Below, one piece after another: positions 1,664-16,167 of a stretch of 16,264 nt of DNA. Numbering within the stretch: the first letter of the stretch is position 1; every line of letters begins with the position of its first letter. The notes under the pieces are model-generated. The model saw nothing but the letters and a program-made list of their open reading frames with translations, was not told where the DNA came from and searched no databases. Origin of the DNA: a virus; the UHGV virus genome UHGV-0349264; one strand, given 5' to 3'. Both the position numbers and the translations under genes were made by a program.

Positions 1664-1738
1664 TGGCGGGACAGCGTGGACTCGAACCACGATAAGAAGG
1701 TTAACAGCCTTCCGTAATGACCTTTATACGACTGACCC
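1664..1738 (-). tRNA. tRNA-like gene, anticodon GUU (Asn), with encoded CCA; one acceptor-stem mismatch
   Basis: 75-nt cloverleaf: acceptor GGGTCAG/CTGTCCC (U4-U68 mismatch), D-arm GTAT-AAAGGTCA-TTAC, perfect anticodon stem GAAGG/CCTTC with loop CTGTTAA, perfect T-arm CGTGG-TTCGAGT-CCACG, discriminator G, CCA. It starts 3 nt after the tR' T-tract. Confidence 0.6.
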
Positions 1739-2636: not shown

Positions 2637-2821
2637 CGTCTTCCCCTCTTGCCCTGTTTGACCATCAGGACGCCGTTAACTATTACATGACGCTCACCTT
2701 TGCTGTCTCTGTTGTACTTGAGCACTGTTCCTCTTGCACAGGAAAGCCTCCTCGCCACTTCGGTCTGATTGCCTCGTGTCTGGATAAGAAGTTCTGGTAT
2801 CGTTTGAATTGTGGCGTTCAT
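2633..2821 (-). CDS. ninH: NinH-like small HTH protein
   Basis: 62-aa ORF with ATGA overlap onto Q. The motif TIPELLIQTRGNQTEVARRLSCARGTVLKY resembles lambda NinH (..GNQTEVARRL..RGTV.KY..). Confidence 0.7.
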   Translation of the reverse strand: MNATIQTIPELLIQTRGNQTEVARRLSCARGTVLKYNRDSKGERHVIVNGVLMVKQGKRGRR

Positions 2822-3180
2822 ACGTTCTCCAGTTCGGTGATTTTTATTCCAAGCCTTCCGCCTGGTACTTTCACACCACGAATTACGCGAATGTCATCGA
2901 ATTGCTCGTCGTCTTCCGCAAATCCGGCGTGGATAAGGGAGTCGAGTAAACCTTTCAGGATGTTGTCGAGGTCGCGGCGGCGGGAGTCTGGAACGTCTGC
3001 GATGACTTTGATACGGAGTCGTGATTTGGTGAAAATGTCTAACTTGAGTTGGCGAATGATTTGCTGAACGTCTTTTCGGTATTTCTGGCCTTTATCGCTG
3101 ATGTAGTATTGGCTTCCCCGTCTTCGCCAGTAGGTATTCACCGACGGCGGGTAAGGAAGCACAAACTGATATTCGTTCAT
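2818..3180 (-). CDS. rusA: RusA-family Holliday junction resolvase
   Basis: 120-aa product with the conserved RusA core (PDSRRRDLDNILKGLLDSLIHAGF..DD). Its size and nin-region position match rusA of lambdoid prophages. Confidence 0.9.
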   Translation of the reverse strand: MNEYQFVLPYPPSVNTYWRRRGSQYYISDKGQKYRKDVQQIIRQLKLDIFTKSRLRIKVIADVPDSRRRDLDNILKGLLDSLIHAGFAEDDEQFDDIRVIRGVKVPGGRLGIKITELENV

Positions 3181-3467
3181 GGCTTAATCTTCCCCTCCTT
3201 CAGCAGTATCGCCTGCGTCCTGATCACGCCTTCGAGGTGGTAAAGTCTGGCGTCTTTGTTGTCGAGGTTATGGGTGCGTCGGTCGATTTCATCGTGACAC
3301 GCGCTACAAGCCCATGCGCCGATCAGGTCGTCAGGCTTCATTCCCGTTCCGCAAATTCCAGCCATCCGGTAATGTGCCAGAACTGTAGTTTCAGGATTGC
3401 CATTGCATACGCCGTAAATACGTACCTGGCATTCTCTGCCGCGTGCTTCTTTGCGTAGATTAGCCAT
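3177..3467 (-). CDS. ybcO: YbcO-like (DUF1364) Cys/His-containing protein, putative nuclease
   Basis: 96-aa product MANLRKEARGRECQVRIYGVCNGNPETTVLAHYR...CSACHDEIDRRTH resembles DLP12 YbcO as recalled. It overlaps rusA by 4 nt. Confidence 0.75.
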   Translation of the reverse strand: MANLRKEARGRECQVRIYGVCNGNPETTVLAHYRMAGICGTGMKPDDLIGAWACSACHDEIDRRTHNLDNKDARLYHLEGVIRTQAILLKEGKIKP

Positions 3468-4189
3468 TAAGCAGCCTCCCCGGTTACTTTCAGCATTCCG
3501 TTATCGAGCAGCTTTCTGGTCAGCCACTGTTGACCACGCCCGGTGATTTTTGTGGTGAACGATATCTGTATTCCGTGATTTGTGTTGACCGCTGTTTCTT
3601 TCACTGTGAAATAGCCGCGATCCATATATTCCTGCATTGGCACATTGCGCCGGGAACCTGAAGCAATAAGGATTTTGTGATCGCGCATCCACGCAAACAG
3701 TTTGTTTGGACCAATTCCAACAACCTTTGCAAAGTTTCCAATCAAAATTCCGCTGGCCTCGCCAACGCGATCGGCAAACTCAACTTTAGGTGCGGCAATT
3801 GCGAGCTGGTTTTCCAGTTGCATTTTCTGCTCAGCAAGATCAGCAGCAAGGCGCAACGCTTCTGGTAGCGTTTTGGGGATATTAACCGCAGCTTCTTCAA
3901 GCTCTCGCCAACGGTCAACAAGACGAGCGGTGAATTCCGGCGACAACTGAGCGACGACAATAATGCTGTCTCGCTTACCTTGTTCGCCCTCAAAAACGTA
4001 AGCCTCTACGCCACGAAGTAATCCTAAGTTATTGATTTTTTCGAAAACCACCATTGGGGGATTTCGGATCACACCTCGAGCCGCCAGTCGTTCAATAGAT
4101 TGTTTCACCTTGTCATGACGACTTCCCACCAACTCAGCGATTTCAATGCTTGTCATTTTGATGGCATTGCCATTTATTAACTCATTCAT
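3467..4189 (-). CDS. Antirepressor-like protein: N-terminal Rha-type regulatory domain plus C-terminal KilA-C/ANT-like domain
   Basis: 240-aa ORF. The N-terminus (TSIEIAELVGSRHDKVKQSIERL) looks like the phage Rha regulatory domain and the C-terminal half looks like the KilAC antirepressor domain. Its start overlaps the ninF stop (ATGAATGA) and its stop overlaps the ybcO start. Confidence 0.7.
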   Translation of the reverse strand: MNELINGNAIKMTSIEIAELVGSRHDKVKQSIERLAARGVIRNPPMVVFEKINNLGLLRGVEAYVFEGEQGKRDSIIVVAQLSPEFTARLVDRWRELEEAAVNIPKTLPEALRLAADLAEQKMQLENQLAIAAPKVEFADRVGEASGILIGNFAKVVGIGPNKLFAWMRDHKILIASGSRRNVPMQEYMDRGYFTVKETAVNTNHGIQISFTTKITGRGQQWLTRKLLDNGMLKVTGEAA

Positions 4190-4352
4190 CGTCTTCTTCC
4201 TCGTACATTGAGCTATTCGGATCGCTCATCAGTTCTGCGCAGCAATCGGAGCACACGTGAACTTCCAGTACATGCAGCTTCTGACCGCAGTTAGCGCACG
4301 TTAAAGCCCGCTCGACGCTTTCTTGTTCGTAACTTCGATTTGGGTCAATCAC
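4182..4352 (-). CDS. ninF: NinF-like zinc-ribbon protein (GTG start)
   Basis: Not in the supplied ORF track (under 60 aa). Hand translation from GTG at 4352 gives [56 protein letters not shown] (56 aa), which matches lambda NinF as recalled. RBS GAGGAA lies upstream. Confidence 0.75.
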
Positions 4353-5123: not shown

Positions 5124-5156
5124 CAAATAAAAAGGCCTGCGATTACCAGCAGGCCT
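5124..5156 (-). terminator. tR2-like intrinsic terminator between the helicase gene and ninB
   Basis: Minus strand: AGGCCTGC-tggtaatc-GCAGGCCT (8-bp GC-rich stem) followed by TTTTTATTT. Confidence 0.6.
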
Positions 5157-5181: not shown

Positions 5182-7575
5182 TCATACGTCAGCCCCTTGT
5201 GCATATCGTCTGCCACGTGCAGCAGGTGCATTTGATGTTGTGCAAATCTGTCTGGCTTCATCCTGGTCACATGCAACAAAGTGTCCGTTGCAGAACCGCT
5301 GGTAAACCGTACCAAGCGAGCCAAAACGGTTTTTTGTCACAATGATTTCAGCAAATGGCGCGGCGCTACTGTTCTCGTCATATACCGCTTCCCGATAGAG
5401 CATGATGATTGAGTCTGCGTCCTGTTCAATGCTTCCTGAATCACGCAAATCTGCGTTTGTCGGGCGTTTGTTTGGTCGCTTCTCAACATCGCGCGAAAGC
5501 TGACTCAGGGAGATAACAGGCGTTTTCAGGTCTTTCGCCATCGCCTTCAGGCTTCCGGAGATGTGAGCAATTGCGAGATCGTTGCGATCTGCTTTAGGCT
5601 TCTCAATCAGGCCAAGATAATCCACCATGATGAGTGACAGGTTTGGATTTTCCTGTTTATGCCGTTCTGCGATTGAGCGTATTTCTTCGACCGATAACCG
5701 AGAGGCATCGACTACCCATACATCCAAATCTGCAAGCTGACTCATGCCGTTAGCAACACGCGCCCAGCCTTCGTCATCCATCGATGCAGGATTTCGCAGT
5801 ACGCTAACCGACATCCTCCCGGCGTTGGCAATGCTTCGCTCTGCAATCTGCAATGCGCTCATTTCCATTGAGAAAATCAATACCCCGCGCCGGACGTCAG
5901 AACCAGGAATAACGCGGCTTGCCACGCCTTCGGCAATCTTCAGCGCCAGTTCCGTATTGTGCGTAACGATGTAATCCGTTGTCACATAGAGATGACTAGG
6001 ATGGCTTACCATGATGCAGAGACACTCTTCTGGCTCAACAACTTCAACCGATTTGATACCCACACCAAGGTTACCAAGCCTGTTAATCCCGAGATTTTTA
6101 CGTAAACGTGGTGAGTGAATTTGCTCTATCAAAGATGATGGCAACTTCATGCTGACCATGTGTGCGTCAAGTCCGGCATGCTTCTCTCCTTTGTACGTGT
6201 AAACTATTCCCGTCCTGCTGGATTCTTTGGCGGTTCCACCTAAAGATCTAACAAGCCTTACTAATCCTTTAGCTAATTTCTGACTTGATGAACTAAAGCG
6301 GATGCATCCGGACTTCTCAACCCAGCCATCTGTCTCGAGCAGGCCAGTTAAAACACCGGTACGTATTTCTTTGCTAGCACTAAAAATTTCTTCTGGGATT
6401 TCCTTCTCGGACGCACCTTTCCCGATCACCCCAATGCCACGTAGTTTGTCCAATAGTGGGTTCTTCTGGCCTTTTTGGTTACTTATCAAATAATCATTCT
6501 CTCCTACCTTAACCAGTCGCAGTGGTGCAATTGCATCACTCATGCGGCTCAGGACATATTCTTCCGAGTTGGTGAATTTGATGCCTTTTATCAACGAACC
6601 GTCACCAAGTAGAGCCCCAATAACCCAACCATCAAGGGGAATATTTTTACCAAAGTCTCCGGTCAAGGATGGCACTCTTATTCTTCCCTGATAACGTGTT
6701 TTTTGTAGCATCCCAGCCAGCGCATCAGTATCAACAACGCGTTTACCAGTAAATCTTGATGATGAAATTTCCCATAAGTGGTTGTCGGCACATTTCACGC
6801 TACGTCCGTCTTCAAAGGTGACTAAATATGTGAATTTCTTCCCTTGCGGGAAGACGCCAATTACCTCCGAAGGAAGCCCGTCTATTGACGCGATGCGATC
6901 GCCAATTTTGACTTCTCCGTGAGTAGTCCAGGTGCCATCTGCAAGTAAAATCCCTTCGCTTAGCGCCATTGCTTTCCCCATACCAGGACGAGCAGCGATT
7001 ATCACAAGGTCTTCTGCGTTCATCCCTCCGGTGATGGCATCAAGTTCTTCGATTCCGGTCTTCAGGGTATCTGACTCTTCTCCGTTCCTCAGACGCCTGT
7101 CAAGCGTGTCAGTGTAGTCAGTGATGATTTCCCCTAACCGCACCGGTTTAACCTCGTCACGGGGCTTTCTGATGGCTGAGAGACGCTTTACAAGCTCATC
7201 CATCGCCTGACTCGATGCGTCGATGGTTCCGCTCCGAATTGGTTCACGCATTTCATCCATGATTTCCAGCACCAGACGGCGGTGATAGTTATCCGCGACC
7301 ATTCCGGCATATCCCTTCAGGTTTGCGGCACTCGGGCAGTTTTTGCTGGTCATCAGGATTGACGTGAAATGCTCCTCTCCGCACTCCTCGGCAACCAGCA
7401 GCGCGTCGATTAGGTTTCTGTTTCTCGCCTGCTTGCGGATAACCTCGAAGGCTTTTCTGTAGAGCGGAATTGAAAACGCTTCCGGCTCAAGCGTTGCCAG
7501 AACGTCACTGGCGGTTGGAGTTAATCCACCAATCAGCAAGCCACCGATAACGCTCGCTTCGATATCCTGTCTCAT
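5182..7575 (-). CDS. dnaB: DnaB-family replicative helicase interrupted by an in-frame intein in the Walker A P-loop
   Basis: 797-aa ORF. Residues 1-201 (ending ..[13 protein letters not shown]) and 541-797 ([64 protein letters not shown]) align with the DnaB N- and C-terminal domains. Extein total is 458 aa, similar to P22 gp12-type helicases. Confidence 0.9.
5956..6972 (-). other. Intein (339 aa) with LAGLIDADG homing-endonuclease domain, inserted between Lys and Thr of the helicase P-loop
   Basis: The insert begins [15 protein letters not shown] right after GMGK and ends ..DYIVTHN, followed by Thr that restores GMGK-T. Two LAGLIDADG-like motifs are present ([23 protein letters not shown]). 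Block B reads H-L-W, block F contains ECLC, and block G reads T-H-N. Confidence 0.75.
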
Positions 7576-9282: not shown

Positions 9283-9337
9283 GTAAAAATACACATTGTG
9301 CATGGATGGTTCCAGTACAGAGCGTAATAATAAGGAC

Positions 9338-9997
9338 ATGAAAATGAAATGGTATGAACTGGCTAGATCCAGAATGAAAGAGCTCGGCATAACTCAAGAG
9401 AAGTTAGCCGAAGAGCTAGGTATGACGCAGGGTGGAATTGGACACTGGTTGCGCGGATCTCGTCATCCATCTCTTAGTGATATTGGTGTGGTGTTTAAAT
9501 ACCTTGGTATTGATAACATATCATTCAACCACGACGGGACATTTTCACCTGTTGGCGAATACTCATCGGCCCCAGTTAAAAAACAATATGAGTACCCTGT
9601 TTTTTCTCATGTTCAGGCTGGGATGTTCTCTCCAGAACTCAGAACCTTTACCAAAGGTGATGCGGAGAGATTGGTAAGCACAACCAAAAAAGCCAGTGAC
9701 TCTGCATTCTGGCTTGAGGTTGAAGGTAACTCAATGACCGCACCAACAGGTTCCAAACCTAGTTTTCCTGACGGGATGTTAATTCTGGTTGACCCTGAGC
9801 AAGCTGTTGAGCCCGGCGATTTCTGCATAGCCAGACTTGGTGGTGATGAATTTACCTTCAAGAAACTGATCAGGGATAGCGGTCAGGTGTTTCTACAACC
9901 ACTAAACCCGCAATATCCAATGATCCCATGCAATGAGAGTTGTTCCGTTGTGGGGAAAGTTATCGCCAGCCAATGGCCTGAAGAGACGTTTGGGTAA
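9338..9997 (+). CDS. cI: CI-type prophage repressor (HTH N-terminal domain plus S24/LexA-like C-terminal domain)
   Basis: The C-terminal ~135 aa (..[85 protein letters not shown]) match lambda CI as recalled; the N-terminal ~85 aa do not. Start placed at ATG 9338 (or 9344) after RBS AAGGA; the track ORF begins further upstream at 9296. Confidence 0.9.
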
Positions 9998-10498: not shown

Positions 10499-11020
10499 AT
10501 GGCAAAGTCAAACGTTAGCGTGCAGGCATTCAAGGACTTCCTTGAAGAGCTTATGTCGCTGAACATAATGAAGGAGGCCACCGCTCGAAATTTAAAAAAC
10601 TCATCCGCTCGCCTCTTAACGGTAGTCCAAGAAGAGGAAATGGGTGATGTTACTCAGCTTGATGTGAATGAGCTTGCCGAGCGATACATCAACGCAACTG
10701 AGCCGAAGCCTAGCGACAGCAGCATTACTGCATATAAAAGCCGCATGGAAAGTGCAATCAAAAAGTTTGTAGCTTTCCAGTCTGGTGAAGAAATCCCATA
10801 CACTCCGATTGACAAAGAATCCAGTGAGGAAAAAGATTTGACTGGCGAACCAACAAAAGTCGAAGGCAAGGCTAATGCACTTCATACCTATGATCTTCCA
10901 GTAGTTCTTCGACCTGAATCAGGGGTTACAGTAACGATTAAAGGCATTCCTAACGATATCACAAACGAAGAAGCCGAACGCATCTCTTCAATTCTGAAGG
11001 TTTACGTTCGGCCTCAATAA
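10499..11020 (+). CDS. Hypothetical 173-aa acidic protein in the cI-pL moron (rex) slot
   Basis: Clean ORF with no significant overlapping ORF of known function, its own promoter and upstream terminator, and an AG-rich RBS region. No motif I can recognise; hydrophilic, no TM segment. Confidence 0.75.
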   Translation: MAKSNVSVQAFKDFLEELMSLNIMKEATARNLKNSSARLLTVVQEEEMGDVTQLDVNELAERYINATEPKPSDSSITAYKSRMESAIKKFVAFQSGEEIPYTPIDKESSEEKDLTGEPTKVEGKANALHTYDLPVVLRPESGVTVTIKGIPNDITNEEAERISSILKVYVRPQ

Positions 11021-11651: not shown

Positions 11652-11749
11652 GATCACCCAACCACATAAGCTGTGGGATGCAATGCCGAAGCAACCGTCT
11701 CAGGAGGAGCTTCGAGATTGCATCGCCAAAGTTTATTCGGGAGGAATCT

Positions 11750-12022
11750 ATGTCCAGAAAAACAGAATTTAAAGGCACCGCAGCTTCTCGCCGTAGAGCT
11801 CGTCGCGCAAACCTGCAAAGTCAGGAGGCGATTAGCTCCGACAAACTACACAGGCCAACCCCATCACGAGTGGTCTTACAATGCAAACGCAAACCAGCAA
11901 TGAGAGCAGAAGTAATAACACTGACAACGTTGACCAGAAAATATGAAGGCTCAACTTGTCTTCCAAATGTAGCTCTTTACGCGGCAGGCTACCGTAAATC
12001 CAAACAACTGACAGCAAGATGA
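11750..12022 (+). CDS. N: N-type transcription antiterminator, P22 gene 24-like
   Basis: 90-aa product from the internal ATG after RBS GGGAGGAA. It has an N-terminal arginine-rich motif (TAASRRRARRANLQ) and a C-terminus LPNVALYAAGYRKSKQLTAR resembling P22 N (..LPGVALYAAGHRKSKQITAR) as recalled. Confidence 0.85.
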   Translation: MSRKTEFKGTAASRRRARRANLQSQEAISSDKLHRPTPSRVVLQCKRKPAMRAEVITLTTLTRKYEGSTCLPNVALYAAGYRKSKQLTAR

Positions 12023-12080
12023 CTTGTGTTGGTCGCCAGAAAATGAAATTAGGCAGCAAACCACTTATTTGAGGTGATAT

Positions 12081-12167
12081 ATGGAAGAAGAATTTGAAGA
12101 GTTCGAAGAGCATCCTCAGGATGTGATGGAACAATACCAGGACTACCCTTATGACTACGACTATTGA
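12081..12167 (+). CDS. Possible 28-aa highly acidic peptide
   Basis: Strong RBS GAGGTGA 4 nt upstream of the ATG. Hand-translated MEEEFEEFEEHPQDVMEQYQDYPYDYDY. It overlaps the start of the next ORF, so only one of the two may be real. Confidence 0.25.
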   Translation: MEEEFEEFEEHPQDVMEQYQDYPYDYDY

Positions 12168-12351
12168 TAAGAATCAATGGTGTGGACAATTCAAGCGATG
12201 CAATGGATGCAAGCTGCAATCGGAATGCATGGTTAAGCCTGAAGAAATGTTTCCTGTAATGGAAGATGGGAAATATGTCGATAAATGGGCAATACGAACG
12301 ACGGCAATGATTGCCAGAGAACTTGGTAAACAGAACAACAAGGCTGCCTGA
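12151..12351 (+). CDS. Small Cys-rich (zinc-ribbon-like) hypothetical protein
   Basis: 66-aa ORF with Cys spacing C-x5-C-x2-C-x5-C (WCGQFKRCNGCKLQSEC), lying in the early-left operon after N. Confidence 0.5.
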   Translation: MTTTIDKNQWCGQFKRCNGCKLQSECMVKPEEMFPVMEDGKYVDKWAIRTTAMIARELGKQNNKAA

Positions 12352-12378
12352 TGGTGGCCTTTATTTTTAAGGAGCTAT

Positions 12379-12621
12379 ATGAAAATTAAAACTATGGCAG
12401 CAAGCCCATTAAGCGGTCGTATTTTTCAAGGAACATTAAACACTGAAAAAGGAATGTGGGTAGGAAAGAAAGAAGATGTCACCGAACAAGCGATTAAGGC
12501 AGTAACTGAACACCTGATGATAAAAGACCGGAAATATGCATACGAAACGAATGATGGCAAATGGGTGATAATAATGCATCAACTGGTTGATGAATTACCA
12601 GAAGAGTTTATTGCTGATTAA
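12379..12621 (+). CDS. Hypothetical 80-aa protein
   Basis: Clean ORF with strong RBS AAGGAG 5 nt upstream. Function unknown. Confidence 0.65.
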   Translation: MKIKTMAASPLSGRIFQGTLNTEKGMWVGKKEDVTEQAIKAVTEHLMIKDRKYAYETNDGKWVIIMHQLVDELPEEFIAD

Positions 12622-12749
12622 AATTATTTTGGCATAAACAACAGAATAAACACTGCACTGTGTATTCATTCCAACGAGTGAATACACGGAGCAATGTCGC
12701 TCGTAACTAAACAGGAGCCGACTTGTTCTGATTATTGGAAATCTTCTTT

Positions 12750-12776
12750 GCCCTCCAGTGTGAGGGCCTTTTTATA
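12750..12776 (+). terminator. Intrinsic terminator within the pL operon (tL1-like position)
   Basis: GCCCTC-cagtgt-GAGGGC followed by CTTTTTATAT. Confidence 0.5.
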
Positions 12777-12839
12777 TGCATACCAATAACGCTTCACTTG
12801 AGGCGTTTTCGTTATGCAATCAAACAGAAGGAGCATCCT

Positions 12840-13010
12840 ATGCAACAGTTCGCTATTGCAGGGGCGGCATCGGTTCGCCCTTTCAACCCGATTTTATCGG
12901 TACAGCATTCACGAAAAAATATTTTAACCGGAGCAGACTTTAAACAACCAAGAATGAAAAGTTTGCTCGAAAAGCTTTGGGATATTTTGAAACAACAAGG
13001 CCGTCCATGA
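12840..13010 (+). CDS. cIII: CIII-like small protein (putative FtsH inhibitor)
   Basis: 56-aa product from the internal ATG after RBS AAGGAG. MQQFAIAGAAS... and ..LLEKLWDILKQQG resemble lambda CIII (MQYAIAGWP...WKRLIDILNQPG) as recalled. Confidence 0.55.
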   Translation: MQQFAIAGAASVRPFNPILSVQHSRKNILTGADFKQPRMKSLLEKLWDILKQQGRP

Positions 13011-13120
13011 GTTTTACAGATAACTGGTCAGACGAAGAATTCATTCGTCAGATGAACAAAATGCTCAATCAGCACAAAGAACAGGAGAAAGATGATGATT
13101 CTGACTCTGAATGATAAGCG
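13007..13120 (+). CDS. Possible 37-aa acidic peptide
   Basis: ATGA start/stop overlap with the cIII-like gene. Hand-translated MSFTDNWSDEEFIRQMNKMLNQHKEQEKDDDSDSE. Confidence 0.3.
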
Positions 13121-13403
13121 TGAAATATCGCAAATAATCGCAAGTTTTACTGATGAAGATTACGAACGAATCAACAGTGAAGTTGATCGCCTCTGCAAAC
13201 GTTGCGACCCAATAAGCGAAATGCTTCGCTCATATAAACCAGATGAACACACTAAGGACGCTGTCGACTGGCTGGAAGATGATGACTGTAACTATCAGGA
13301 AAAAGCCGCTGAATGGTTCTGGGATGCAATAACCGAAAGAGTTAAGGCTGAATATGCCTTCGCAATATTCAAACGCAGACATATTTATGGAGAAGCAGCA
13401 TGA
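13092..13403 (+). CDS. Hypothetical 103-aa acidic protein immediately upstream of, and coupled to, recT
   Basis: Clean ORF whose stop overlaps the recT start (ATGA). Contains CKRC and DDDC motifs. Function unknown. Confidence 0.6.
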   Translation: MMILTLNDKREISQIIASFTDEDYERINSEVDRLCKRCDPISEMLRSYKPDEHTKDAVDWLEDDDCNYQEKAAEWFWDAITERVKAEYAFAIFKRRHIYGEAA

Positions 13404-14311
13404 GCAATATCGTTGAATTCGTTAAACAGCAGGAGCAGTTATTCTGCGGAGCATTGACTGAACAGACGGTGACATGGGCTAAGGAAAGCCAGTTTGCAAT
13501 TCAGTATTTCCAGAAAAATGATTACCTGGCTAAAACGGCACTGGCAAATCCAACCAGCGCACAGAACGCCATCATCAATGTTGCGGCGATCGGCATCACC
13601 TTAAACCCGGCCAGCAAACTTGCTTATCTGGTTCCGCGCGACGGCATGGTTTGCCTTGATATCAGCTATATGGGATTGCTCCATATTGCAATGGAGTCTG
13701 GTGTTATCTCATGGGGTCAGGCAAAACTTGTTCATGCTAACGATACCTATGAGTCAAACGGGCTTGATAAAGCACCAACCCATAAATACAACGCCTTCGG
13801 TGATCGTGGTGATATCGTTGGCGTTTACTGCACAGTTAAGACGCCAGCAGGTGATTATCTAACGGAAGAGATGAGTCTGGCTGAAATTGATGCTGTAAGG
13901 AAAACAAGCAAGGCAGCATTCAGCGATAAAGGACCATGGGTAAATCACTGGAATGAGATGGCGCGAAAGACGGTCGTAAAGCGTGCAAGCAAGTATTGGC
14001 CTAAGGCATCACGTCTTGATAGTGCTATTCACGTACTAAACGAAGAAGAAGGTGTGTGGACTGAACCAGTTATGCCGCACAAATCAGAGGAAGATATCCG
14101 CGAAGATGAACGGAAACGCCAGCAGGAAATAATGGATAAAGTACAACTTCTTTGCGATGAAATGGCTCAGGCAGAAAACATGGATGATTTGAAGCGATAT
14201 TTTGCAGAAGCATATCGCCTAACATCTGGAATGAAATTACAGCAGAACGTACAAGCCATTTACATAGAATGCAAAGCGAAACTGGAGGTTGCCAGTGAGC
14301 AAACTATATGA
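13400..14311 (+). CDS. recT: RecT-family single-strand annealing recombinase
   Basis: 303-aa product. The motif GPWVNHWNEMARKTVVKRASKYWP matches the conserved RecT core (GPWVTHWEEMAKKTAIRRLFKYLP in E. coli RecT as recalled). Confidence 0.9.
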   Translation: MSNIVEFVKQQEQLFCGALTEQTVTWAKESQFAIQYFQKNDYLAKTALANPTSAQNAIINVAAIGITLNPASKLAYLVPRDGMVCLDISYMGLLHIAMESGVISWGQAKLVHANDTYESNGLDKAPTHKYNAFGDRGDIVGVYCTVKTPAGDYLTEEMSLAEIDAVRKTSKAAFSDKGPWVNHWNEMARKTVVKRASKYWPKASRLDSAIHVLNEEEGVWTEPVMPHKSEEDIREDERKRQQEIMDKVQLLCDEMAQAENMDDLKRYFAEAYRLTSGMKLQQNVQAIYIECKAKLEVASEQTI

Positions 14312-14777
14312 AATAGCCAATGAATACGCAAAATTGATGGATTCAGATTTAGAACCAGAGATGATTGCTGACACAATAGAAGGCATGGAAGGAGAATTTA
14401 CCGATAAAATAGAGCAACTTCTCGCCATTATTAAAAATGAATCTGGTTATGCTGAACGCCTCAAGGACGAGGCAAAGTCACTGAATGAACGAGCAGCAGT
14501 AATTCAAAATAAGATTGATAGCATTATGGCATATATAGCCTCATCGCTTGAAATGGTTGGCAAGAAAAAGATTAGAGCAGGTATTCACCAGGTAACAATC
14601 CGCAAACCGTCAGAAACTGTAGAAATCATCGACTCAAGCGCCCTTCCTCCTGAATACGTTGAGTTTGAAACGACAATTAAAGCCGACAAGTTGGCAATCA
14701 AGCACCAACTAAAAGCAGGATTAAATATCCCCGGTGCTCAACTCAAAGTTGGGAAACCTTCACTTCTTATCAAATAA
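14295..14777 (+). CDS. Hypothetical coiled-coil protein; size and position suggest a Gp157-like family member
   Basis: About 160 aa, predicted helical/coiled-coil. Probable GTG start at 14295 after RBS GGAGG (the track ORF starts with TTG at 14289). The family call is from recollection only. Confidence 0.55.
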   Translation: MSKLYEIANEYAKLMDSDLEPEMIADTIEGMEGEFTDKIEQLLAIIKNESGYAERLKDEAKSLNERAAVIQNKIDSIMAYIASSLEMVGKKKIRAGIHQVTIRKPSETVEIIDSSALPPEYVEFETTIKADKLAIKHQLKAGLNIPGAQLKVGKPSLLIK

Positions 14778-14788
14778 CGGTATCGCCT

Positions 14789-15103
14789 ATGAAAAAGACT
14801 CCATGGGAGAAATGGGAAGTCGATTTCTTGCGCGAGGTAGCGGCGACAATGCCAGTTGAAGTTATCGCAGAAAAACTGGAAAGGACTGAAAAAGCAGTAA
14901 TGGCGAAAGCAACAAGGATTGGCGCTGACATTGTTAGCCGACTTCGTGGAAGACGCTGGACAAGAGCCGAAGTATCAATTTTCGGTAAGTTCTCTGCAGA
15001 AGAAATAGCAATTGCAACCTGCCGCTCAATTTATTCAGTAAGAGCTATGCGATACAAGCTAAAAAAACTCGATGAAGAAAGAGCAGGCATACAAATAAAT
15101 TAA
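14789..15103 (+). CDS. Hypothetical 104-aa protein with an internal two-fold repeat (possible tandem HTH/SANT-like)
   Basis: The two halves align (..WEVDFLREV..VEVIAEKLERTEKAVMAKATRIG versus ..WTRAEVSIFGKF..AEEIAIATCRSIYSVRAMRYKL). Confidence 0.55.
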   Translation: MKKTPWEKWEVDFLREVAATMPVEVIAEKLERTEKAVMAKATRIGADIVSRLRGRRWTRAEVSIFGKFSAEEIAIATCRSIYSVRAMRYKLKKLDEERAGIQIN

Positions 15104-15119
15104 CATGGAGTAATTAACA

Positions 15120-15401
15120 ATGAAGCTAAACATCGACCTAGGAAAATACGTTATTACCGGAACCAAACACGATCTGATTCTTAGCGAAAGAGGAATTATC
15201 AAAGAAGGCGAGAATGCAGGGAAAGAAACACTAAGTCGTATCGGTTATTACAGCAAGTTTGAGCATCTGGTTAAAGAGTTATGCAACCGTGAAATCCTGT
15301 TATCTCAGGCGCAGACGCTACAGGATATTCAGCAGCATATCGAGACTTTAGGTATGTCACTTAGCATGGCTATTGACCAGTTCGTGGAGAGTAAATCATG
15401 A
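15120..15401 (+). CDS. Hypothetical 93-aa protein
   Basis: Clean ORF with RBS GGAG. Function unknown. Confidence 0.6.
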
Positions 15402-15565
15402 GAGGACTTACATACAATCCCGGCATTCTTCCGGCAGAAATGATTATTCGTCAACGCGTAAAGCCAATGCCATCGAGAGAGGAATTGCTTAAGCGAAATT
15501 CTTTTCTGTCAGTGAATCAAAACAAATATCTGAATGCGATGTGGCGCAAAGGAGGCAACCAGTGA
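15398..15565 (+). CDS. Possible 55-aa protein
   Basis: ATGA overlap with the upstream ORF. Hand-translated [55 protein letters not shown]. Confidence 0.4.
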
Positions 15566-16167
15566 GCAAGATTAACTATCAAGCACTGCGTGAAAAGGCA
15601 GAGAAAGCAACATGTGGCGAGTGGTCGCTCGAATATGGAGAGGGCCGATTTGATGGTGATGATGCACTAATTCATCGCGAGGCTGATGGATATATTCCCA
15701 TTTGCAGAATTGAAGGAGCGCATCCTGAAAGCGGTTTCGATGAAGATTTCCAAATGGAACAGCAGGCAAATGCTGAATTCATCGCCGCAGCCAATCCGGC
15801 TACCGTGCTGACACTGCTGGACGAGCTGGAAACAGCAAAAAAGCGCATAGCAGAACTGGAAGCCGAACCCGTAAGCCAAACTTACAAGTTGAACGAGCTA
15901 TCGGGCAACTCTCCGGTAACTCCGGATGGTTGGATAAGATGTAGTGAGCGAATGCCAGAAATGGGAGAGCGACAATGCTATGTGTTAGCAGCTGACTTTA
16001 AAAACAACTACCCGCCAAACATCCCCAACACTCAGGTCGGTGTATATGGCGACTGGTTTAATGATGGCAATCCCACTTGGGATGACGGTGATGGCGAAGA
16101 CCTGTATCTCAAAGAGGTAACCCACTGGATGTCGCTACCAGAACAGCCTCGATTAAAGGAGCTATAA
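15562..16167 (+). CDS. Ea22-like early protein with C-terminal DUF551-like domain
   Basis: Probable GTG start after RBS AGGAGG. It has a central coiled-coil ([18 protein letters not shown]) and a C-terminal motif (..[18 protein letters not shown]) typical of DUF551 proteins in lambdoid early-left regions, as recalled. Confidence 0.65.

Follow-up and report, generated by a model that had tools for sequence, protein, structure and literature searches.

Between ninF and the ybcO-rusA-ninH-Q genes of the prophage analysed here (the window, that is, the whole stretch of 16,264 nt of UHGV virus genome UHGV-0349264) lies an open reading frame of 240 codons. A sequence-only reading had taken it for an antirepressor gene of the Rha/KilAC type that replaces ninG-type content and whose product could act in trans on the repressors of co-resident prophages. 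Which gene is this, and is its product an antirepressor? The position itself was borne out by the list of open reading frames and by the Pfam annotations of the same-strand neighbours (NinB, NinD, NinE and NinF upstream; YbcO, RusA, NinH and Q downstream). We designate the gene roi (Table 1), since its product shares 90% identity with HK022 Roi and the gene order of the two phages is the same. It is a copy of roi as known from lambdoid phages of the HK022/HK97 type, and we consider it very probable that its product works by the Roi-IHF DNA-binding model proposed below.

The identity to HK022 Roi extends over 240/241 aa (E 8e-161) and is complete over residues 66-240; the two proteins differ in residues 22-65, the region of the predicted recognition helix and wing. 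The HK022 record lists ninE, ninF, roi (annotated as 'DNA binding protein'), ybcO, RusA, ninH and Q in the order of the window, and HK022 Roi shares with the window protein the nin position, the overlapping junctions and the Pfam profile of a Rha-like plus a KilAC domain. A 1,351-bp query from ninE to rusA matched 423 phage records, and in the full-length matches the gene is annotated as roi, Roi protein or DNA-binding protein Roi (HK022, HK97, HK620, HK629 and mEpX1; an ortholog annotated roi also occurs in VT2-Sakai). HK75 and other phages have the ninE-ninF-roi-ybcO-rusA block too. Of 5,426 complete E. coli genomes, 583 carry the ninE-rusA block with at least 80% coverage, and several IMG/VR viral contigs encode proteins 100% identical to the window's Roi over all 240 aa. 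The gene is already known: it was named in 1996, and roughly one complete E. coli genome in ten has it in this exact arrangement. As a discovery roi is of little weight, and the useful outcome is a correction.

Table 1. Coordinates in the window of roi, its parts, its neighbours and the pL arm.
Feature	Position	Strand	Basis or detail
roi coding sequence, 240 aa	3467..4189	(-)	ORF list, ATG start; ortholog of HK022/HK97/HK620 roi
N-terminal Rha-type winged helix-turn-helix domain (by transitive homology), residues about 11-101	3887..4159	(-)	
Allelic (mosaic) patch, residues 22-65: turn, predicted recognition helix, beta-hairpin wing	3995..4126	(-)	
Long linker helix between both domains, residues 108-144	3758..3868	(-)	AF2 model
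C-terminal KilAC/ANT domain, Pfam residues 126-228	3506..3814	(-)	PF03374, 113.3 bits
IHF core consensus AATCAATAACTTA (WATCAANNNNTTR), roi nt 153-165	4025..4037	(-)	Candidate site, sequence match
ninF, upstream neighbour	4182..4352	(-)	Pfam NinF, 51.7 bits
ninF/roi junction	4182..4202	(-)	Shine-Dalgarno-like GAGGAA 4197-4202; 8-nt overlap ATGAATGA 4182-4189
roi/ybcO junction TAATG, 1-nt overlap	3465..3469	(-)	Sequence reading
ybcO/DUF1364 putative nuclease, downstream neighbour	3177..3467	(-)	Pfam YbcO, 150 bits
rusA	2818-3180		Pfam RusA, 62 bits
tR2-like intrinsic terminator, between helicase gene and ninB	5133..5156	(-)	8-bp stem, 6 GC pairs, then TTTTTATTT
pL arm	11678-16167	(+)	N-like antiterminator 11678-12022, ral 12151-12351, cIII-like gene 12735-13010
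pL arm, continued		(+)	RecT 13400-14311, Mu Gam-like gene 14289-14777, Ead/Ea22-DUF551 gene 15541-16167

HK022 Roi is reportedly a dispensable, site-specific DNA-binding protein of the HTH type. Its site is said to lie inside its own gene, adjoining an IHF site, and IHF is said to stabilise the binding. In IHF-deficient hosts Roi reportedly prevents lytic growth of HK022, a block that is said to be lifted by single amino-acid changes in Roi with changed DNA binding, and the C-terminal half of the protein reportedly resembles P1 Ant1 and KilA. In the passages of PMC3430580 and PMC4587872 that cite it, the reference for Roi is Clerget & Boccard (J Bacteriol 1996, 178:4077). Rha, to whose family the N-terminal domain belongs, was defined by a phenotype of this class: the title of its reference (Henthorn & Friedman 1995, cited in PMC8951638) speaks of products 'inhibitory for phage growth in E. 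coli IHF mutants'.

The sequence-only reading had expected both a Rha and a KilAC domain, and the KilAC domain was confirmed by Pfam: ANT/KilAC (PF03374) scored 113.3 bits against a gathering cut-off of 25.3 and aligned over profile positions 1-106 of 108. The Rha domain came out less directly. Phage_pRha (PF09669), the family of Rha of phi80 and P22, was matched by residues 12-99 over its full profile (positions 1-91, E 4e-6), but at 27.7 bits against a gathering cut-off of 29.9. Precomputed Pfam annotations give PF09669 for proteins near-identical to Roi. Because 42 of the 44 aligned full-length Roi homologs match Phage_pRha (best E 8.8e-18), the N-terminal domain is probably of Rha type, by transitive homology. 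Roi further matched PHROG 63, 'anti-repressor Ant', at 4.5e-96, and searches of Roi against NCBIfam and against the PADLOC defence models gave no match.

AlphaFold2, run with 44 diverse homologs, gave a model of mean pLDDT 90.5 that predicts an N-terminal domain consisting of a strand (11-13), helices 14-21 and 25-37 (the HTH), a beta-hairpin (46-67, the wing) and helices spanning 68-101. In the C-terminal domain the model places a pair of short helices, then a hairpin (194-215) and one last helix. Searches of PDB by Foldseek, sequence and profile gave no hits. The KilAC family is very large, with 6,844 clusters at 50% identity (E below 1e-3).

The gene is closely packed between its neighbours. 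Upstream, the supposed overlap of the roi start with the end of ninF holds for the reading frames, which share 8 nt, but not for the codons themselves: the roi ATG lies 2 nt ahead of the ninF TGA and the two share no bases. Downstream, the roi stop does overlap the ybcO start, by 1 nt in TAATG. Overlaps of 1-34 nt mark every one of the eight junctions between ninB and Q, and tight coupling is therefore common to the nin block at large and does not set roi apart. A translational coupling specific to roi was rejected on these eight junctions.

The idea that roi replaces ninG-type content did not hold either. The order ninF-roi-ybcO-rusA was found in 49 of 78 roi loci, and in a further 28 of the 78 roi is directly followed by a 201-aa NinG (Pfam 300.6 bits) through the same TAATG junction. 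Because roi joins ybcO or ninG through this one junction, it is no substitute for ninG; it is with the ybcO-rusA pair, not with roi, that ninG alternates. RusA and NinG/Rap are both junction-resolving enzymes. A recent insertion of roi at the expense of ninG was rejected, since TAATG joins roi to both genes. Directly 5' of roi, ninF is absent in 27/78 loci, 26 of which are among the 28 ninG loci. In the one locus that was examined in detail (IMG/VR contig 2648501392_000002, 1416-3495), an antirepressor-like gene with ORF6N plus P22_AR_C domains precedes roi and ninG, an arrangement of Stx phages in which two 'antirepressor-family' genes stand side by side.

Regarding expression, a strong tR2-like terminator precedes the nin block to which roi belongs, and the phage has an N-like antiterminator; the assignment of roi to the delayed-early pR transcript in the sequence-only reading agrees with both. 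No LexA box was found within 2.9 kb of roi with one mismatch allowed. The search for an own promoter on the roi strand upstream of the gene yielded only a weak 9-of-12 match inside ninE, and promoter-like sites upstream of roi are fewer than in shuffles of the same region. Given where it lies, and with no convincing promoter to serve it separately, roi would be transcribed from pR in dependence on N antitermination. The repressor gene of the prophage (9296-9997, plus strand) encodes HTH_3 plus Peptidase_S24 (99.5 bits), the architecture of lambda-type CI, which inactivates itself by RecA-stimulated cleavage. Since roi lies behind tR2 in the pR operon and has no control of its own, it would be expressed only after CI has been removed, and so would have no role in starting induction.

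At the terminator, the listed TTG start of ninB (5126) overlaps the T-tract, and translation of ninB probably begins instead at the ATG lying 18 nt further downstream.

The comparison of roi genes covered 78 of them: 76 from IMG/VR loci, that of HK022 and one from an E. coli genome. Their nucleotide diversity falls mainly in nt 61-240, and nt 1-60 and the KilAC half are almost invariant, the latter among 56 distinct genes. In residues 22-65 we detected at least four alleles. The commonest, with 21 identical N-terminal sequences and about 27 near-identical variants in a set of 77 genes, is that of the window, and the allele of HK022 is rarer; between the two phages the patch DNA is visibly diverged, with a length difference of 3 nt, while the remainder of roi is nearly identical. 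Because the predicted recognition helix lies within these diverged residues, the DNA target of the window's Roi may differ from that of HK022.

The IHF core consensus is matched perfectly just once in the 16-kb window, inside this patch (Table 1). By chance about one match would be expected per window, and an estimated 0.02 within the 723-nt gene. The consensus recurs at the same position of roi in HK022 and in 23 of 23 distinct nucleotide variants of the patch, covering all four alleles; nucleotide changes within it fall on N positions, and its flanks diverge. As a predicted site, it fits the published IHF site in roi. A search inside roi for a repeated or palindromic Roi operator returned only short, unconvincing repeats, none of them shared between alleles.

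Taken together with the HK022 background, these observations suggest the following model. Roi consists of a Rha-type winged HTH, a long helix and a KilAC domain, and is encoded in the nin block behind the tR2-like terminator. As in its HK022 ortholog, it would bind its own gene together with IHF, and where IHF is lacking it would block lytic growth. The Roi-IHF complex on roi may serve autoregulation, may titrate Roi or may slow read-through towards Q. The allelic patch of recognition helix and wing would set the DNA specificity, and the conserved KilAC half would be the effector, possibly directed at the host and harmful when Roi is unchecked.

It is possible, though we hold it doubtful, that Roi is mainly a host effector, its KilAC half hitting a host protein (damping RecA/SOS in the manner of Listeria AriS, or blocking cell division in that of phi11 Gp07, CreP and P1 KilA) and its N-terminal domain together with IHF limiting the dose. 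A nearly invariant KilAC half next to an allelic N-terminal patch is in line with this, and such an effector would account for the harm done by unrestrained Roi in IHF-deficient hosts. P1 KilA points the same way: it is 67% identical to Roi over 130 aa (E 9e-66; C-terminal Roi residues 104-233) and is annotated with 'product can kill host', its gene lying upstream of repL. In both proteins a putative DNA-binding domain at the N-terminus precedes KilAC; that of KilA is a KilA-N domain and that of Roi a Rha-type domain. Against a mainly host-directed Roi, the HK022 escape mutations reportedly altered how Roi binds DNA, and this makes DNA binding the core of the phenotype; enterobacterial KilAC proteins are without any known host target, and Roi matches no defence or toxin family.

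More distant relatives bear on the same question. Both AriS of Listeria phage phi10403S and Gp07 of S. aureus phage phi11 combine, like Roi, a variable N-terminal putative DNA-binding domain with a conserved KilAC domain, and AriS-like proteins include pRha-KilAC variants (PMC9043618). The KilAC domain of AriS alone damps the SOS response in Listeria, probably via RecA (PMC9043618). In E. coli, filamentation or growth arrest follows from KilAC alone, as seen for the KilA-C domain of phi11 Gp07, which causes filamentation (PMC5944126), and for Acinetobacter CreP, a KilAC-only bacteriostatic inhibitor of division (bioRxiv 10.1101/2024.01.05.574328). These activities argue for a host effector, but AriS and Gp07 are distant Firmicutes sequences, and SOS inhibition and filamentation are activities of theirs. 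Because KilAC proteins differ in their shown or annotated activities, 'antirepressor' is a family name and no predictor of function.

This bears on the antirepressor that the sequence-only reading had in mind. A true antirepressor would bind residual CI of its own phage, or CI of a co-resident heteroimmune prophage, after derepression, and would thereby reinforce or spread induction; we consider this quite unlikely for Roi. The KilAC/ANT score of 113 bits and the PHROG label 'anti-repressor Ant' favour it, as does P1 Ant1, an annotated antirepressor that is 59% identical to Roi over 165 aa (E 2e-66; Roi residues 73-234, linker helix plus KilAC). In the P1 record Ant1 is annotated as antagonising the C1 repressor, in an Ant1/Ant2/C1 complex. 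The likeness extends to an IHF site, annotated inside the ant1 coding sequence (48945-48957 of the P1 record) and found as a consensus match inside that of roi. However, the N-terminal part of Ant1 is unrelated to that of Roi and is without a Rha domain, and P1 ant stands under the control of the C4 antisense RNA and icd in the dedicated immI operon; roi, by contrast, belongs to the pR nin block and has no regulation of this kind. To our knowledge, C1, the target of Ant1, has no counterpart in this prophage and is unrelated to lambda-type CI. We also know of no report of antirepressor activity for Roi, whose published characterisation is that of a DNA-binding protein, and the shared module is 67% identical to that of P1 KilA, an annotated host killer, and inhibits SOS or cell division in the distant relatives cited above.

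The control of roi argues in the same direction. Of a functional phage antirepressor such as P22 Ant, P1 Ant1, Gifsy GfoA/GfhA or 186 Tum one would expect a control circuit that does not depend on the target repressor, be it a LexA box, an immI-type repressor or an antisense RNA, but roi has neither a LexA box nor separate control and lies behind tR2 in the pR operon, and LexA-controlled systems pair with a non-cleavable repressor, whereas the CI of this prophage carries Peptidase_S24.

A further argument comes from the immunity types that accompany roi. In 10-kb flanks we detected CI-like genes in 52 loci, representing 15 types in a small and phylogenetically non-independent sample. Allele A of roi occurs with 10 CI groups, one of them a truncated fragment, and thus with at least nine types; allele B occurs with six and allele C with eight, and each of the three commonest CI types (0, 1 and 2) was found with alleles A, B and C. 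Linkage between N-terminal alleles and CI type was not seen in these 52 loci, a small sample of non-independent members. Because alleles A-C are spread over so many CI types, the variable patch appears not to be matched to the phage's own repressor, the only one that this comparison covered. The proposed antirepressor function leans on a family name and on the homology to P1 Ant1, and it is weakened by the position of the gene, by its control without a LexA box or a convincing own promoter, by the S24-type CI and by the spread of the alleles over CI types.

Antirepressor cross-talk in trans is known between Gifsy prophages of Salmonella (PMC3121763). For Roi, it would mean that the protein made by a derepressed prophage acts on the repressors or operators of co-resident heteroimmune lambdoid prophages, with the patch choosing the partners, and if so an induction cascade could run through the many prophages of an E. 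coli cell. In a milder variant, the patch and the embedded IHF site would form a self-contained cassette, a 'protein plus own site' that times read-through to Q. We hold these readings to be very unlikely, and nothing in the present results points to cross-talk in trans after induction.

That the ORF is a decaying or functionless passenger of a defective prophage is an extremely improbable reading, which can appeal to the natural dispensability of roi, broken by IS629 insertions in some Stx2a phages (PMC4587872), but which sits badly with an intact frame of 240 aa behind a Shine-Dalgarno-like sequence and a start codon, with 100% identical proteins in several viral contigs and with the strong conservation of the C-terminal half among 56 distinct genes.

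Elsewhere in the window, the DnaB-like replicative helicase (797 aa; 5182-7575, minus strand) contains an in-frame LAGLIDADG intein of about 339 aa (about 5956-6972), which follows directly after the Walker A motif GMGK, begins with Ala and ends ...VTHN|T. The helicase gene is 97.9% identical in many Stx2a-converting phages. Between cI and the gene of the N-like antiterminator, an ORF of 173 aa (10499-11020, plus strand) gave no match in a Pfam search; its one match was PHROG 2602, a group of unknown function, and its place corresponds to that of lysogen-expressed genes of the rexAB type in lambda. The recombination module is of the RecT/Gam-like kind and not lambda Red, because the pL arm carries RecT and Mu Gam-like genes (Table 1). 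The Q antiterminator and holin genes flank two tRNA genes, tRNA-Thr(tgt) and tRNA-Asn(gtt) (1583-1658 and 1664-1738, minus strand), which occupy the place of the tRNAs and stx in Stx phages.
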